Source: a phage. From it: a DNA stretch of 47,548 bases. This document shows, in pieces, positions 5,546 to 15,092 of this stretch. The notes under the pieces were generated by a model, which was not told the origin of the DNA, did no database searches, and worked only from the letters and a program-made list of their open reading frames with translations. Position 1 is the stretch's first letter. Every line of letters starts with the position of its first letter. The DNA is taken from assembly GCA_012145005.1 (NCBI GenBank), contig GCA_012145005.1_3029.1; one strand, written 5' to 3'. Made by a program: the position numbers and the translations under genes.

Positions 5546-6007
5546 ATGACTATCAATACAGAAGTTTTTATCCGTCGAAATAAGCTTCGTCGTCATTTTG
5601 AGTCGGAGTTTCGTCAAATTAACAATGAGATTCGTGAGGCATCAAAAGCAGCAGGGGTCTCATCGTTTCATCTGAAATATTCTCAGCATCTTCTTGATCG
5701 TGCAATTCAACGGGAGATTGATGAGACATATGTTTTTGAATTATTCCATAAAATAAAAGACCATGTTTTAGAAGTTAATGAATTCCTGAGTATGCCTCCG
5801 CGTCCTGACATTGACGAGGATTTTATTGATGGGGTTGAATATCGTCCTGGACGTTTAGAAATCACAGATGGAAATCTTTGGCTTGGATTTACAGTTTGTA
5901 AGCCTAATGAGAAGTTCAAAAACCCGTCACTTCAATGCAGGATGGCAATTATCAATAGTCGTCGTTTACCAGGAAAGGCTTCTAAAGCAGTAATTAAAAC
6001 TCAATGA
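5546..6007 (+). CDS. regB: RegB site-specific endoribonuclease
   Basis: 153 aa; MTINTEVFIRRNKLRRHFESEFRQ matches T4 RegB. Confidence 0.9.
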   Translation: MTINTEVFIRRNKLRRHFESEFRQINNEIREASKAAGVSSFHLKYSQHLLDRAIQREIDETYVFELFHKIKDHVLEVNEFLSMPPRPDIDEDFIDGVEYRPGRLEITDGNLWLGFTVCKPNEKFKNPSLQCRMAIINSRRLPGKASKAVIKTQ

Positions 6008-6014
6008 GGTAAGC

Positions 6015-6560
6015 ATGAGAAAAGCACTACTCGCTGGTCTATTGGCCATTTCAATGATGGCACATAGCTCCGAGCATACTTTCAGTAATGTCCAACTCGA
6101 TAACATGCGTTACGCATATCAATTCGGGGAACAATTTTCTAAGGATGGAAAATATAAAACACACAAAAATATCCACAAGAGCGGATTAGGTCATATAATG
6201 GCTGCTATTTTATGGCAAGAAAGCTCTGGCGGAGTTAATTTAAAATCTAAACCAAAGCATCACGCCTACGGAATGTTCCAAAATTATTTGCCTACTATGC
6301 GAGCAAGAGTTAAGGAACTTGGTTATAATATGACCGATGCTGAAATAAAAAGAATGTTGAATAAACGGTCCAATTCAGCTTCCTGGGCGTACATTGAACT
6401 TTCTTATTGGTTAAATATACATAAGGGCGATATAAGAAAAGCAATATCCTCTTATAATTCGGGATGGAATGTTAAAGCAGGTTCTAAATATGCTTCTGAA
6501 GTCCTAGAAAAGGCTAATTACCTTAAAAATAATAAACTTTTGGAAATAGTAAATGACTAA
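6015..6560 (+). CDS. secreted lytic-transglycosylase-like protein (vs.1-like)
   Basis: signal peptide MRKALLAGLLAISMMAHS; SLT-like motifs ESSGG and AYGMFQ. Confidence 0.55.
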   Translation: MRKALLAGLLAISMMAHSSEHTFSNVQLDNMRYAYQFGEQFSKDGKYKTHKNIHKSGLGHIMAAILWQESSGGVNLKSKPKHHAYGMFQNYLPTMRARVKELGYNMTDAEIKRMLNKRSNSASWAYIELSYWLNIHKGDIRKAISSYNSGWNVKAGSKYASEVLEKANYLKNNKLLEIVND

Positions 6561-6894
6561 AATTTTGGTTTTATGTATAGGATTAATTTCATTTTCTGCG
6601 TTAGCAGATACATCATATACTGAAATTAGAGAATATGTAAACCGTACTGCAGCGGATTATTGCGGGAAAAATAAAGCATGTCAAGCTGAATTTGCGCAGA
6701 AATTAATATATGCATATAAAGACGGAGAAAGAGATAAATCAAGCAGATACAAAAATGATACATTGTTAAAACGATATGCTAAAAAGTGGAATACCTTAGA
6801 ATGTTCAGTTGCGGAGGAGAAAGATAAAGCCGCTTGTCATTCAATGGTTGACCGTTTGGTAGATTCTTATAATCGAGGATTGAGTACTAGATGA
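6553..6894 (+). CDS. secreted cysteine-containing small protein (possibly vs)
   Basis: signal peptide MTKILVLCIGLISFSALA; position between vs.1-like and tk region. Confidence 0.45.
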   Translation: MTKILVLCIGLISFSALADTSYTEIREYVNRTAADYCGKNKACQAEFAQKLIYAYKDGERDKSSRYKNDTLLKRYAKKWNTLECSVAEEKDKAACHSMVDRLVDSYNRGLSTR

Positions 6895-7358
6895 TTGTAA
6901 AATATATCAAGGGCGATATTGTCGCCCTTTTCGCTGAAGGTAAAAATATTGCGCATGGATGCAATTGTTTTCATACTATGGGTTCAGGCGTAGCGGGTCA
7001 ATTAACCAAAGCTTTCCCTAAAATTTTGGAAGCTGATAAATTACAGACTGAATGGGGTGATGTAACTAAACTCGGTTCTTACTCAGTCTATGAAAAATAC
7101 TTTAGGACTCATAAAGCGTATTGCTTCAACCTTTATACTCAATTTCAACCAGGGCCAAATTTTGAGTATTCCGCTTTAATGAATTGTATGTTAGAATTAA
7201 ATGAGTTTGGTGAAAATAAACTGATTAAACCTACAATCTATATGCCTAGGATTGGTGCAGGCATAGGTAAAGGAAACTGGGATATTATTGAGGGGATTTT
7301 AGATACATATTCCTCTAAATTAGAAATTGTGATTGTTGATTGGGAACCGTTATTATGA
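6891..7358 (+). CDS. macro domain protein (ADP-ribose binding/hydrolase fold)
   Basis: GCNCFHTMGSGVAG and IGAGIGKG glycine-rich macro-domain motifs. Confidence 0.65.
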   Translation: MIVKYIKGDIVALFAEGKNIAHGCNCFHTMGSGVAGQLTKAFPKILEADKLQTEWGDVTKLGSYSVYEKYFRTHKAYCFNLYTQFQPGPNFEYSALMNCMLELNEFGENKLIKPTIYMPRIGAGIGKGNWDIIEGILDTYSSKLEIVIVDWEPLL

Positions 7359-7567
7359 ATATACATTATCCACATCCGTATGACCCAAAGAATAAGGCAG
7401 TAATTATTCGTCAATGGGAACGCATTTGCCGTACTAAATGTCCAATTAATAGTCCACATGATGTAGATAAAGACTACATTGGAACATTCGTTGAATATAC
7501 CTTTATTGATAAGAAAGGTCGTAAACAGCATGTAGAAGAATACTGCTTAAAGGTGACATGGTTATGA
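7355..7567 (+). CDS. hypothetical protein
   Basis: ORF track trimmed to ATG overlapping previous stop. Confidence 0.4.
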   Translation: MNIHYPHPYDPKNKAVIIRQWERICRTKCPINSPHDVDKDYIGTFVEYTFIDKKGRKQHVEEYCLKVTWL

Positions 7568-7770
7568 GCCAAACTAGTATTCTTAAAAATGCCCACTGTG
7601 AAAAGTGTAAATGGCCGGTTGTTTTTGCTTTATGCAACGATGAAATGGCTTGTGATTTCGATTATTGGTGCTATTGTTCTAATAAAGGATGCATCAATCA
7701 TAAAGGTGAAGGATTTTATTCGGGATTTTATCCTTATCCAGATTTCGTTAAAGAAGGTAAACCGAAATGA
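7564..7770 (+). CDS. cysteine-rich small protein (possible Zn binding)
   Basis: CEKC...C...C...CYC...C pattern. Confidence 0.4.
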   Translation: MSQTSILKNAHCEKCKWPVVFALCNDEMACDFDYWCYCSNKGCINHKGEGFYSGFYPYPDFVKEGKPK

Positions 7771-7940
7771 ATAGTTCTGAGTTACAATATGAAGTGTTAC
7801 GTGAACTTGATAATTTAATTGAACTCGCTGTTAATAAAGGTTTTGCCATTGGAATTGGTCAAAAAGATACTGATCATTTAACTGTGGAAATATTTAAGCA
7901 AAAGCGAATTATTTTAAAACTTTTGGAAATTAATATATGA
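7767..7940 (+). CDS. small hypothetical protein (57 aa)
   Basis: ATGA-coupled ORF below track cutoff, fills the gap between neighbours. Confidence 0.3.
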   Translation: MNSSELQYEVLRELDNLIELAVNKGFAIGIGQKDTDHLTVEIFKQKRIILKLLEINI

Positions 7941-10827: not shown

Positions 10828-11385
10828 GTGAGTGAGTCAAAGAGAATCAATATGAAACGATTAGTATTAGAAGTTAGTCCGCTTTTTGGTGAATTGGCTA
10901 TAGAAAAAGTAAATAATATGTATCGTTTGACGCAAGAAGACGATATGCTATATTTTACGCCCAGTGAAATCATTCGTTTAACCCAAATTGAATATCCTTA
11001 TACTGATAAAATAGTAAGCATCAATGATGAGCACAAAATTCATTTTTATTCTTCATGCCCAGGATTTAATATTAACAGTGAGTCAATGTGTTTATCAGTT
11101 ATCCATTGGGATAGTTTTATAGCTAAGATTAAATATTTTTATTATTCTAATGAAAGAAAACATAGTTTAAAATGGCTCAAAAATTGCAATGCTATTATTA
11201 CTAACGCTTGCAATCAGAATGATGAAACTCTTTTAAATGTATCAAAATGTTATGAAGAGGGAGATGTCTTAACTATTCGCCAAATTGACGATTTTCGATC
11301 ACATATTGTCACATTTACCAAAGACGAAGCTATTGCGCTAAAGACTTATCTTGATTCTGTCATTCCAACTATGATTTCAAAGTGA
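10828..11385 (+). CDS. hypothetical protein, paralog pair member A
   Basis: GTG start 9 nt after AAGGAG; C-terminus KDEAIALKTYLDSVIPTM similar to next gene. Confidence 0.45.
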   Translation: MSESKRINMKRLVLEVSPLFGELAIEKVNNMYRLTQEDDMLYFTPSEIIRLTQIEYPYTDKIVSINDEHKIHFYSSCPGFNINSESMCLSVIHWDSFIAKIKYFYYSNERKHSLKWLKNCNAIITNACNQNDETLLNVSKCYEEGDVLTIRQIDDFRSHIVTFTKDEAIALKTYLDSVIPTMISK

Positions 11386-11391
11386 GGAAAT

Positions 11392-11913
11392 ATGTTTATT
11401 TCAAGTGAAAGTGGTTTAATTCGTGTTGAATTTAAAAATGACATCTTCCTTATTCAAGGAGATGATATTATTAAAATGAGTTATGACGAAATCAAGAAAA
11501 TTTGTCATACTCTTGAAAGTCATGGAAAGGAAAATGCTACTATCGATATAGGTGATTTATGGGTGACGCTTTATGAAGTATCCGAAGGATTTAACATTGA
11601 AGATGAAAACAACATCTTAGCTATTGATAAAAGAAGTGATTTGTTTGATGTGTTAAAAGTTTATGAACAGTCAAACGGTGGAAGAAAAGCCGTATTGATT
11701 TATCAAAAACCGCATTCATGCGGAACTGCTTCAATTATTTCAAATATTGAAGATGAAACTGATACCTATATGTGTGTTTTGAAAGCGGGCGGTGACCGTC
11801 ATCCGGATTTTATTTCTATTCGTCAAAACAATGGAGAAATTTCATTATCAAAATCAGAAGCTGAAGCTATGATTAAGTATTTAACAACCGTTACACCTTC
11901 AATGAAAGGATAA
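11392..11913 (+). CDS. hypothetical protein, paralog pair member B
   Basis: C-terminus KSEAEAMIKYLTTVTPSM parallels previous gene. Confidence 0.45.
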   Translation: MFISSESGLIRVEFKNDIFLIQGDDIIKMSYDEIKKICHTLESHGKENATIDIGDLWVTLYEVSEGFNIEDENNILAIDKRSDLFDVLKVYEQSNGGRKAVLIYQKPHSCGTASIISNIEDETDTYMCVLKAGGDRHPDFISIRQNNGEISLSKSEAEAMIKYLTTVTPSMKG

Positions 11914-11915
11914 TT

Positions 11916-12377
11916 ATGATTATTAATGAAAGCTCTTGGCACTATAAATTATTCAAAATGTTTAATGATGAATGGAAACGACCTAAGACACTATGCGCGT
12001 ATTTTTGGTCTATTGTTATTCCTACATTTTTCGTTTCTTTTTTCGGATGTACTATACTCGCAGGTCTAACTATCATCTGCGCAGAAATCATGCAGAAATG
12101 GCTTATTTTTGGTAGTTTATGGACTCTTATTCCATCAGCATTTATACTTGCCATTTTGCTTGTTTTACTTATTATCGGTTCATTTGTTATTCCTGCACAA
12201 TTGCATGAAAAATATAAAGATTATAAATGGAAAAAGGATTATGCTTTACATGTAGAAAATATTGATAGGGCGTATAAAGGTTTACCTCCTATTCAACCAA
12301 AGAAATCTATTATCGTCGAATTTTTAAAAGCGCGTAAAGCTAAAGTATGTCCTGTTATTGAATATAAGGCTGAATGA
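11916..12377 (+). CDS. two-TM membrane protein
   Basis: two long hydrophobic segments in ORF track protein. Confidence 0.45.
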   Translation: MIINESSWHYKLFKMFNDEWKRPKTLCAYFWSIVIPTFFVSFFGCTILAGLTIICAEIMQKWLIFGSLWTLIPSAFILAILLVLLIIGSFVIPAQLHEKYKDYKWKKDYALHVENIDRAYKGLPPIQPKKSIIVEFLKARKAKVCPVIEYKAE

Positions 12378-13387
12378 TGAAAACAGTAATGAAAAGCTAT
12401 TTTGGCAGTCATCTTTATGGAACTTCTACTCCAGAATCTGATGTAGATTTTAAAGAAATCTTTGTTCCTCCTGCTCGCGATATTCTTATCGGAAATGTTA
12501 AAGAGCATATGAGTAAAAACACTAACAACACATCATCTAAAAACACTAAAGATGATATTGACCATGAACTATACAGTCTTAAGTATTTCTTTAAATTAGC
12601 AGCAGATGGTGAAACTGTAGCATTGGATATGCTTCACACTCCACCTGAGCTAGTGGTTAAATCTGATTTACCTGATGTATGGAAATTTATCCAAGACAAT
12701 CGTTCACGATTTTATACAACTAACATGAAATCCTATTTAGGATATGTCCGTAAGCAAGCTTCTAAATATGGTGTTAAGGGTTCTCGTTTGGCCGCATTGC
12801 GTGATGTATTGAAAGTAGTTAATCAAATCCCCGATCAGTGGGTTGATTATCAAGAAGACGGTTCCATTAAGCAACGTCGCACTAAAGTTGAAGATATTAA
12901 GCATCGTCTTCCAGAGAACGAATTCTGTGAATGGGTATTCCATAATCATGAGAAAACCGGTCCACAAACGTTCTACACTGTGTTGGGTCGTAAATATCAG
13001 ACAACACTTTCTCTTATTGAGCTTAAGCAGTCTTTGAATAAACTTGATGCCGAATACGGTGAACGTGCTCGTAAGGCTGAAGCGAATGAAGGTATTGACT
13101 GGAAAGCATTGAGTCATGCTTGTCGTGGTGGACTCCAACTATTGGAAATTTACAAAACTGGTGACTTAGTCTATCCACTTCAAGATGCTCCGTTTATTCT
13201 CGACGTGAAGCTGGGTAAACATCCATTTAAAACTGTTCAAGAGTTTTTGGAAGATGTGGTCGATCAAGTAGAAGCAGCATCCATTGAAGCTTCTAAGAAC
13301 GGTATGCAGCAAAAAGTAGACATGGGTTTTTGGGATGACTTCCTTGAGAGGGTTTATCTTGAAAACCACCGAAGTTATTATAAATGA
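12374..13387 (+). CDS. Pol-beta-superfamily nucleotidyltransferase-fold protein
   Basis: N-terminal FGSHLYGTSTPESDVDF fits hG[GS]x9-13Dh[DE]h NTase signature; candidate third acidic residue in VALDML. Confidence 0.5.
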   Translation: MMKTVMKSYFGSHLYGTSTPESDVDFKEIFVPPARDILIGNVKEHMSKNTNNTSSKNTKDDIDHELYSLKYFFKLAADGETVALDMLHTPPELVVKSDLPDVWKFIQDNRSRFYTTNMKSYLGYVRKQASKYGVKGSRLAALRDVLKVVNQIPDQWVDYQEDGSIKQRRTKVEDIKHRLPENEFCEWVFHNHEKTGPQTFYTVLGRKYQTTLSLIELKQSLNKLDAEYGERARKAEANEGIDWKALSHACRGGLQLLEIYKTGDLVYPLQDAPFILDVKLGKHPFKTVQEFLEDVVDQVEAASIEASKNGMQQKVDMGFWDDFLERVYLENHRSYYK

Positions 13388-13388
13388 T

Positions 13389-13413
13389 AGGGAGCCTTCG
13401 GGCTCCCTTTTTG
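13389..13413 (+). terminator. UUCG-tetraloop stem-loop with T-tract
   Basis: AGGGAGCC-TTCG-GGCTCCCT then TTTTT. Confidence 0.7.
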
Positions 13414-13435
13414 TTTAAAATGACGTCACAAAGTT

Positions 13436-13465
13436 GTTTACTTCTGCCGCAAAGCATATTATAAT
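13436..13465 (+). promoter_or_regulatory. T4-type early promoter
   Basis: GTTTAC, 17 bp, TATAAT. Confidence 0.65.
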
Positions 13466-13511: not shown

Positions 13512-13997
13512 ATGCATATTTTAATGCAATGCCTTGGCAACAAAATTAATGATTTTAATCATAAGCGTGTTAATGATTACATTAAAGACAAACTTGAGAT
13601 TAAAGACACACTTTTTAGAGGACTTACAATAGAGGAAGTGCTATCTTATAAGTTTGAAGTTAATAGGAGAATCAAATTTAAAAGAATAACTTCCTTTAGC
13701 AGTGAGTCTCATATAGCTGAAACGTTTGCGGCAGAACGCTATATGACTAATGTTTTAGTAGTATTAAAAAATGCAAACGTTTTCGACTATTCGACTGCTA
13801 TGATTGACATTTTAGAAAATTTAATCGCAATTGAAGAATCTGGTCAAACTGACGATGATAAGCTTAACAAGCTTTATGATAACCTTTGTATGGTAGATTA
13901 TGAAAGAGAGTTTTTACTGCCAATTAATTCTGAGTTAATAGTTAAAAACATATATTTTGATAGCAAAAAGAACATGCATATAGTAGAAATGGAATAA
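13512..13997 (+). CDS. putative mono-ADP-ribosyltransferase (R-S-E class, C3/ModB-like minimal domain)
   Basis: LFRG (Arg36), TSFSS (STS-like, 60-64), YEREFLLPINSELIV (ExE 131-133 in an ARTT-loop-like context) in canonical order and spacing. Confidence 0.5.
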   Translation: MHILMQCLGNKINDFNHKRVNDYIKDKLEIKDTLFRGLTIEEVLSYKFEVNRRIKFKRITSFSSESHIAETFAAERYMTNVLVVLKNANVFDYSTAMIDILENLIAIEESGQTDDDKLNKLYDNLCMVDYEREFLLPINSELIVKNIYFDSKKNMHIVEME

Positions 13998-14005
13998 ATC
14001 GACAC

Positions 14006-14034
14006 AAAGGGGCCCTAGAGGTCCCCTTTTTATT
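14006..14034 (+). terminator. stem-loop with T-tract
   Basis: AAAGGGG...CCCCTTTT followed by TATTT. Confidence 0.6.
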
Positions 14035-14101: not shown

Positions 14102-14123
14102 TGATACGGATTTGGAGAATAAA

Positions 14124-15092
14124 ATGAAAACTGTAACTATCAATAAGGGTATCTACTTCGGTAAAGAAATCTCTGGAACTTTTGAGCTCTTAGGCGAATG
14201 GTTCCCAGATAATGCTCCGGTAGATGCACAAGGAGATGGTAAAGTTTTTGTTGAAATTGACGGTAAACGTCGCGGTGTTTGGGTTTACAAATCAGATATT
14301 TCATATGATGGTGTAAAAGTTGAAGAAGTTAAAGAATCATATGAAGATATGAAAACCCGCATTAATAAAAGATTTAATGTTATGGGAATGATGACGAATG
14401 GTATTATTAATGGAAATATTCGTTCATTAATTATCTCTGGCGCAGCAGGTATTGGTAAAACGTATTCTTTAGATAAAGCTTTAAATAAAGCAAATGATAT
14501 TGGATACATTGAATATAAAAGCATTAATGGTAAAATCTCTGGTATTGGTCTTTATGAGCAGCTTTGGAATAATCGTGAAGAGAATTCTGTCCTTTTGATT
14601 GATGATGTGGATGTTTTCTCTGATATGGACATTCTTAATCTTCTAAAAGCCGCTCTGGACACTGGAGAGACCCGTAAAGTCTGCTGGAGTACTGCGTCTT
14701 CTTACTTAGAAGAAAAAGGCATTGACCGTGAGTTTGAATTTAAAGGAACGATTGTTTTTATCACAAACGTTGACATTGACCGCGAATTAGACCGTGGTAC
14801 TAAACTTGCTCCACATTTACAAGCATTGGTGTCCCGCTCAGTTTATTTGGATTTGGGTGTTCACACTAATGAAGAAATTATGGTCAGGGTTGAAGATGTT
14901 ATTCTTTCAACCGACATGATGCAAAAGCGCGGTCTTTCTGATGAAGAAACTTATAAAGCATTATCATGGATGAAAGTTAATGTTAATCGTTTACGCAATG
15001 TTTCACTGCGTACTGCTCTTTATCTTGCTGACTTTATTATGACCGACAAAAACGGTTGGGAAGAAATTGCTGAGGTTACTCTTCTAAAATAA
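14124..15092 (+). CDS. AAA+ ATPase-like protein
   Basis: Walker A ISGAAGIGKT, Walker B VLLIDDVD, sensor-1-like IVFITN; about 100-aa N-terminal domain. Confidence 0.55.
   Translation: MKTVTINKGIYFGKEISGTFELLGEWFPDNAPVDAQGDGKVFVEIDGKRRGVWVYKSDISYDGVKVEEVKESYEDMKTRINKRFNVMGMMTNGIINGNIRSLIISGAAGIGKTYSLDKALNKANDIGYIEYKSINGKISGIGLYEQLWNNREENSVLLIDDVDVFSDMDILNLLKAALDTGETRKVCWSTASSYLEEKGIDREFEFKGTIVFITNVDIDRELDRGTKLAPHLQALVSRSVYLDLGVHTNEEIMVRVEDVILSTDMMQKRGLSDEETYKALSWMKVNVNRLRNVSLRTALYLADFIMTDKNGWEEIAEVTLLK

Follow-up and report, generated by a model that had tools for sequence, protein, structure and literature searches.

Two Pseudomonas members of the RlaP nucleotidyltransferase family (PF10127), described in a December 2025 preprint, add one or two nucleoside monophosphates (NMP, or the deoxy form dNMP) to the 3'-OH of RNA and do not label DNA or protein (PMC12776372). 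Their preferred metal is Mn2+ and their preferred substrate the 5' half in a mimic of nicked tRNA; with tRNA lacking one anticodon-loop nucleotide they bring back part of the aminoacylation, and their product ends in a 3'-OH, as is needed by 5'-phosphate ligases, T4 Rnl1 among them (PMC12776372). RlaP proteins carry three strictly conserved Asp residues (PMC12776372). In the published sequence similarity network of PF10127, the Pseudomonas fluorescens and P. aeruginosa enzymes belong to cluster 1a, whereas the phage T4 protein NrdC.11 was placed in cluster 5, with its function given as unknown (PMC12776372). Excision of the wobble nucleotide of tRNA by RloC has been proposed as a means to defeat phage repair (PMC3458546), and phage RlaPs have been predicted to restore RloC-type-excised nucleotides before ligation (PMC7824862). 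Here we describe the nrdC.11 gene carried by a 47,548-nucleotide stretch of phage DNA (GenBank assembly GCA_012145005.1, contig GCA_012145005.1_3029.1). We refer to this whole stretch, an AT-rich (~34% GC) segment of a T-even phage genome, as the window.

The gene, coding for a nucleotidyltransferase of the NrdC.11 or "long" RlaP type, lies at 12374..13387 on the plus strand. It specifies 337 amino acids from its first ATG (N-terminus MMKTVMKSYFGSHLYGTSTPESDVDF) and ends with a TAA stop at 13385-13387, exactly the open reading frame (ORF) that an earlier sequence-only reading of this DNA had described. Two in-frame ATGs occur in the sequence ATGATGA (window 12374-12379), and the first of them overlaps the TGA stop of an upstream ORF for a 153-amino-acid membrane protein, a translational-coupling arrangement. 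The second ATG, at 12377, gives a protein of 336 amino acids and is the start annotated in T4, in phage UFV-AREG1 and in database records. The gene was found at at least 80% nucleotide identity in 699 phage records, and a homologue of the protein was found in 1514. In a library of 1.8 billion proteins it matched 3421 clusters (formed at 50% identity) at E<=1e-3 and 828 at E<=1e-30. The ratio of nonsynonymous to synonymous substitution rates (dN/dS, Nei-Gojobori) was 0.04-0.09 against eight orthologues. Given these record counts, cluster matches and dN/dS values, 12374..13387 is a real gene under strong purifying selection and not a chance ORF.

Judged by sequence identity and gene order, it is the orthologue of T4 nrdC.11, one gene shared by two sister Tequatroviruses. 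Over its full length the protein has 98% identity to T4 NrdC.11; identity to the T2 protein is 99%, and to that of Shigella phage SH-1 100%. Within the rI-nrdC early region the gene still lies ahead of nrdC.10, and gene order is as in T4 and UFV-AREG1 except for one inserted cassette encoding an ADP-ribosyltransferase (ART). The window shares with T4 the rI/mobD.x block upstream and nrdC.10, nrdC.9 and nrdC.8 downstream. The T4 protein (NP_049709) is now called "nucleotidyltransferase", having earlier been the [quoted passage not shown], and RefSeq already gives the nucleotidyltransferase label to both the T4 and the UFV-AREG1 proteins. Where the sequence-only reading had called a phage-encoded signaling or modifying nucleotidyltransferase next to an ART-like gene unusual, we therefore find a known gene, the long-annotated nrdC.11 of the RlaP family, already assigned to cluster 5 (PMC12776372) and a core accessory gene of the T-even phages.

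Many GenBank and UniRef entries for the orthologue carry the label "thioredoxin", and one carries "HNH homing endonuclease". Pfam and homologue searches found no similarity of the protein to thioredoxin. The thioredoxin label is wrong, an error that apparently spread from the locus name nrdC.11.

Profile searches place the window protein among the RlaP-family nucleotidyltransferases. PF10127 matched it with 43.7 bits against a cutoff of 23 (E = 3.4e-11), over amino acids 7-135 only (profile positions 23-142 of 249), and PHROG 388, "nucleotidyltransferase", matched it over its full length (6.8e-137). We collected 63 diverse homologues, 34-55% identical to it, and all 63 also matched PF10127. 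Alignment with canonical RlaP by hhalign gave a probability of 95-96% and an E value of ~1e-8, and a comparison of profiles of the long and short RlaP types was significant over the N-terminal domain only (probability 95%, E = 2e-8). The two types share the G[SA]...DxD...D residues and appear to share a layout of nucleotidyltransferase domain followed by helical C-terminal domain. NrdC.11 differs in being ~80 amino acids longer and in having an extra inserted beta-subdomain. BLASTP with a C-terminal fragment and with a deletion construct did not extend the match to canonical RlaP. A possible correspondence between a C-terminal KxxxHxxR...TGD motif in the long protein and KxxxYxxR...TG/SG in the canonical one, across an insertion of ~100 amino acids, came up as an alternative hhalign alignment that was not significant (E = 0.28). 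With no extension by BLASTP either, we keep this correspondence as a lead only.

The catalytic residues were examined in an alignment of the 63 homologues. The sequence-only reading had pointed to a GS...DxD signature at the N-terminus, and this proved correct, being invariant in all of them. G11-S12 of the hG[GS] motif (12404..12409, plus strand) stands at the start of helix 12-15 and aligns with GA in canonical RlaP. The predicted metal-binding dyad D23-V24-D25 (12440..12448, plus strand), in which D23 and D25 are the invariant residues, stands at the start of strand 24-31. In both BLASTP and hhalign, D23xD25 aligned with the DYD of a canonical RlaP encoded at L119:6979-7743, a cellular locus described below. 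For the third catalytic carboxylate that reading had proposed D85, in the sequence VALDML (12626..12628, plus strand). D85 is present in at least 90% of the 63 sequences and is not invariant, it lies in helix 81-87, and it aligned by both methods with the E of "VLEQL" in canonical RlaP. D63 (12560..12562, plus strand) is the better candidate, because it is invariant, sits on a beta-strand (62-68) and aligned, again by both methods, with a conserved Asp of canonical RlaP, that of "QIDLV". D63 is thus probably the third catalytic carboxylate and D85 probably a conserved accessory acid. The invariant basic residues R231, K244, H248, R251 and K279 all fall in the C-terminal domain and may serve to bind phosphate or RNA.

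An AlphaFold2 model of the protein had a predicted local distance difference test score (pLDDT) of 94.1 and a predicted template modeling score (pTM) of 0.82. Its N-terminal part, approximately amino acids 1-118 (12374..12727, plus strand), is a Pol-beta-type nucleotidyltransferase domain with strands 3-10, 24-31, 45-49, 62-68 and 94-96 and helices between them. The beta-sheet core, whose absence would have told against the fold, is present in the model, and the call of a phage-encoded Pol-beta-superfamily nucleotidyltransferase stands, backed by the above-cutoff RlaP match, PHROG 388 and matches to nucleotidyltransferase folds. After this core comes a long helix, 119-150, and then a beta-rich inserted subdomain of approximately amino acids 151-212 (12824..13009, plus strand), in which DSSP assigned strands 155-159, 165-169, 185-192, 196-203 and 206-209. 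This insert is the most variable part of the protein among T-even orthologues and did not align significantly with short RlaP. The C-terminal helical domain, approximately amino acids 213-337 (13010..13384, plus strand), carries the five invariant basic residues. The earlier description of a helical C-terminal half therefore holds from about residue 214 onward but fails for residues 155-209, which are beta rich. The model ends in a terminal helix, 317-336. In the crystal structure of the P. fluorescens enzyme (PfRlaP), the final helix packs back on the nucleotidyltransferase domain; the C-terminal halves of the two proteins were not significantly aligned.

Foldseek against the PDB gave only weak matches, the best of which (E = 4e-3) were the nucleotidyltransferase-like protein 3c18, kanamycin nucleotidyltransferase, HalB, AadA, Tam41 and MNT. 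Lincosamide nucleotidyltransferases were also among the nearest solved folds. In BFVD, 34 viral proteins shared this fold at E<=0.001, and most of the named ones were annotated as nucleotidyltransferases. Sequence searches of the PDB with the protein alone and with the 63-sequence profile found no relative; the PfRlaP structure was absent from the entries searched.

We then looked at which genes accompany the NrdC.11 type in cells, using 80 cellular loci with full-length homologues (32-54% identity) from Desulfobacterales, Nitrospirota, Alphaproteobacteria and some archaeal metagenome-assembled genomes (MAGs). When neighboring ORFs were clustered without supervision, the families that recurred most included RtcB, Pnkp and Hen1, and Pfam confirmed them. 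A tblastn census counted RtcB 11 times, Pnkp 8, Hen1 7, T4-type Pnk 3, RtcA 2 and Rnl1 once. At least one of these repair genes lay within 6 kb in 18 of the 80 loci, mostly co-directional and abutting. At L136, for example, the order is Hen1, Pnkp, RlaP, with overlapping ends. Since such repair genes occur at most about once per genome and a 12-kb window is ~0.3% of a 4-Mb genome, we estimate, as a rough figure and not a computed control, that far less than one locus would be expected by chance for each repair family. The NrdC.11 clade itself thus shows the linkage to RNA repair by which RlaP is defined.

Two of these loci are worth describing individually. The Nitrosospira contig L119 (3712-13383) carries, all co-directional, RtcB, RtcA, long RlaP, short RlaP, Hen1, two further ORFs and Pnkp, so that it joins the RtcB and Pnkp/Hen1 systems in one locus. 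On L087 (62-3803), one strand carries long RlaP, an ORF of 130 amino acids, a T4-type Pnk (AAA_33 plus HAD_PNKP), an ORF of 143 amino acids and an Rnl1-type ligase. This 4-kb contig was binned to a Bathyarchaeota MAG and is possibly viral; it holds a T4-like heal-and-seal set together with RlaP in one cassette.

The cellular loci also revealed a recurrent partner. In ~19 of the 80, a short canonical RlaP lies immediately downstream of the long NrdC.11-type gene and in the same orientation, and the stop of the long gene often overlaps the start of the short one. These short proteins, of 250-290 amino acids, give full-length PF10127 matches of 210-265 bits. The pairs lie at about 6000-7800 in most of the loci concerned (L088, L090, L098, L105, L107, L111, L114, L119, L133, L136, L137, L142, L150, L152, L153, L159 and L160), and at L161:5979-7784 the long and short proteins form a single ORF of 601 amino acids. 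The pairing suggests a two-subunit or two-step arrangement.

We propose that NrdC.11 adds nucleotides to RNA 3' ends in concert with the T4 repair enzymes Pnk and Rnl1, and we would put the probability of this at roughly 0.6, the activity being extrapolated from the characterized RlaPs and from gene neighborhoods. G11-S12 with D23, D25 and D63 would hold the nucleoside triphosphate (NTP) and two divalent metal ions, probably Mn2+, while R231, K244, H248, R251 and K279 of the C-terminal domain would line a cleft for RNA and NTP. The enzyme would make an untemplated addition of one nucleotide or two at the 3'-OH of a damaged RNA, the likeliest substrate being the 5' half left when an anticodon nuclease of the host, RloC for example, has cut and trimmed the anticodon loop of a tRNA. 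During T-even infection NrdC.11 would act after end healing by Pnk, which leaves 3'-OH and 5'-P, and before sealing by Rnl1. With the excised nucleotide restored, ligation would yield a usable tRNA. Counted by genus, phage records with NrdC.11 homologues and those with Rnl1 homologues are nearly equal in number (609 versus 637 for Escherichia, 286 versus 287 for Klebsiella, 83 versus 83 for Shigella, 75 versus 77 for Aeromonas and 69 versus 69 for Acinetobacter).

A number of observations weigh against this proposal. The co-occurrence with Rnl1 may reflect only the shared ancestry of the Straboviridae. Although cellular relatives of NrdC.11 resemble RlaP in lying in RtcB/RtcA or Pnkp/Hen1 operons, the phage gene is not beside a ligase. 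We searched the window and 78 viral loci, mostly from T4-like phages of 160-250 kb, for these repair genes and for homologues of pseT, rnlA and rnlB, and found none within 6 kb in the window or in 76 of the 78 phage loci; the exceptions were an Rnl1 homologue at L065 and RtcB at L074. T4 does carry pseT and rnlA, but ~80 kb from nrdC.11. The characterized cluster-1a RlaPs are ~28% identical to NrdC.11, and that over the N-terminal domain only. The C-terminal 200 residues have no detectable homology to canonical RlaP, and because this is the part expected to determine substrate choice, the substrate may differ. No second RlaP was found in the window or the phage loci, and a solitary phage enzyme may work differently. 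The sole RlaP biochemistry is the preprint on cluster-1a enzymes (PMC12776372), and literature searches found no experimental work on nrdC.11 or on any NrdC.11-type protein. Finally, a laboratory deletion spanning nrdC.11-mobD.3 is tolerated in T4 (PMC9825161).

Tailing of RNA 3' ends might instead serve another purpose, such as the rebuilding of trimmed tRNA 3' ends or the attachment of short tails that alter the stability of host or phage RNA. The Pseudomonas RlaPs used all four NTPs, with little specificity among them, to label single-stranded RNA, rRNA and full-length tRNA (PMC12776372), and the phage gene, unlinked to ligase genes, lies in a block of early genes of the host-takeover type, all of which suits such a role. 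We nevertheless regard it as a possibility of distinctly lower standing than repair, since the cellular neighbors are RtcB, Pnkp and Hen1 and not genes for RNA decay or CCA maturation, and since the characterized enzymes stop after one or two nucleotides and act preferentially on the 5' half of nicked tRNA (PMC12776372). Nucleotidylylation of a small molecule or a protein is less likely again. By this account NrdC.11 would act like the aminoglycoside and lincosamide nucleotidyltransferases, MntA, DrrA or GlnE, for example by AMPylating a host factor or a toxin. The sequence-only reading had allowed for an antibiotic-type enzyme, and it is true that kanamycin and lincosamide nucleotidyltransferases are among the nearest folds; however, every such match is weak (Foldseek E = 4e-3 or worse), and the protein belongs to none of NTP_transf_2, KNTase_C and related families. 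Pfam NTP_transf_2 and NCBIfam MntA scored far below their cutoffs, and NCBIfam otherwise returned nothing. Whereas the kanamycin, lincosamide and streptomycin enzymes (ANT(4'), LinB, AadA/AadK) use small-molecule acceptors, the RlaP family uses RNA (PMC12776372); PfRlaP and the P. aeruginosa enzyme (PaRlaP) did not label Escherichia coli proteins (PMC12776372), and the cellular gene neighborhood is one of RNA repair.

It is very improbable that NrdC.11 is a signaling nucleotidyltransferase, making cyclic or 2'-5' oligonucleotides in the manner of cGAS, DncV or OAS, or a HalB-like oligodeoxyadenylate as a decoy against Hailong-type defense. The earlier suggestion of a cGAS/DncV-like or OAS-like enzyme finds no support. 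Among the top 50-60 fold matches listed, neither cGAS, CD-NTases and OAS nor poly(A) polymerases and CCA-adding enzymes appeared; no Pfam match to SMODS, Mab-21, OAS1_C or CD-NTase models was found at E<=0.1; and PADLOC, which includes models for cyclic-oligonucleotide-based antiphage signaling systems (CBASS), gave no match at E<=0.1. The core of the Pol-beta superfamily is the sole likeness between NrdC.11 and the cGAS/DncV-like CD-NTases or OAS. No CBASS-type effector or regulator, and no sensor partner, adjoins the gene, whose neighbors are the membrane protein, NrdC.10 and, behind a promoter of its own, a ModB-like ART. HalB, the Hailong oligodeoxyadenylate synthase (PDB 9dbh and 9dbj), did appear among the best fold matches, but it is a 217-amino-acid protein, 14% identical to NrdC.11, with neither the beta-insert nor the large helical domain; the resemblance is at the level of a generic minimal nucleotidyltransferase core, and there is no HalA partner or PADLOC match. 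The family, moreover, is defined by its linkage to RNA repair.

The sequence-only reading had also drawn attention to an ART-like gene next to nrdC.11. Directly after the nrdC.11 stop lies a strong intrinsic-terminator-like hairpin followed by a T run (AGGGAGCCTTCGGGCTCCCT then TTTTTGTTT; 13389..13416, plus strand), which closes the nrdC.11 transcription unit. A T4-early-type promoter, TTTACT-17-TATAAT (13437-13465), then precedes an ORF of 161 amino acids (13512..13997, plus strand) for a ModB-like ADP-ribosyltransferase, and a second hairpin terminator (14009-14025) follows it. The 161-amino-acid protein is 30% identical to T4 ModB (E = 4e-15) and matches PHROG 832, "RNA polymerase ADP-ribosylase" (7e-24). 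R36, S61 and E131-x-E133 are conserved in it, and it lacks the first ~38 residues of ModB. At 90% identity or more, the ART gene turned up in just 44 phage records, and only 4 of the 78 viral loci have it in this place. In T4, just 114 bp separate nrdC.11 from nrdC.10, with no ART between them. Because the ART gene has its own transcription unit, is sporadically distributed and is absent from this place in T4, it is not an operon partner of nrdC.11. It is a ModB paralogue on a self-contained promoter/terminator cassette with hairpin terminators at 13389-13408 and 14009-14025, inserted sporadically, and its adjacency is incidental.

The remaining neighbors can be described briefly. Upstream, on the plus strand, are two tandem paralogues of the y05I-like putative transcription factor (10828..11385 and 11392..11913; Pfam T4_y05I_N and T4_y05I_C, E = 1e-21 to 1e-39) and then, directly before nrdC.11, the 153-amino-acid membrane protein (11916..12377). 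T4 has the homing endonuclease gene mobD directly upstream of nrdC.11 in place of these three genes. Downstream, NrdC.10 (326 amino acids; 14112..15092, plus strand) had only subthreshold matches to P-loop, AAA and STAND-NTPase Pfam families, the best being AAA_14 with 23 bits against a cutoff of 27. NrdC.10 follows RlaP in most phages whose RlaP is at least 61% identical to the window protein and not in the distant ones. At L057-L063, L072, L074, L084, L085 and L135, RlaP is recurrently flanked by genes for proteins of ~498 and ~355 amino acids. Inspected by eye, these resemble a nicotinamide phosphoribosyltransferase and a fusion of NMN adenylyltransferase with Nudix, as in phage NAD salvage, and their sharing probably reflects synteny among related large phages.

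As a sequence feature nrdC.11 is ordinary: RefSeq annotates its product as a nucleotidyltransferase, and its placement in the RlaP family is already in the literature. What the present comparison adds is that the phage enzyme is one of a separate, long subfamily with cellular members in RtcB and Pnkp-Hen1 operons, and that the frequent pairing of this form with canonical RlaP suggests a two-enzyme arrangement outside the published biochemistry of short RlaPs. A fuller scenario, which we offer tentatively and as rather unlikely in all its parts together, is that long RlaP forms a subfamily with a function of its own, is the partner of short RlaP in those cellular operons and that T-even phages kept the long form alone, as the third enzyme of T4 Pnk-Rnl1 tRNA repair, where it would re-add the RloC-excised nucleotide as a counter-counter-defense. 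It is an old question whether phages can answer the RloC-type excision supposedly aimed at repair by T4 Pnk and Rnl1, and NrdC.11 is the obvious candidate.

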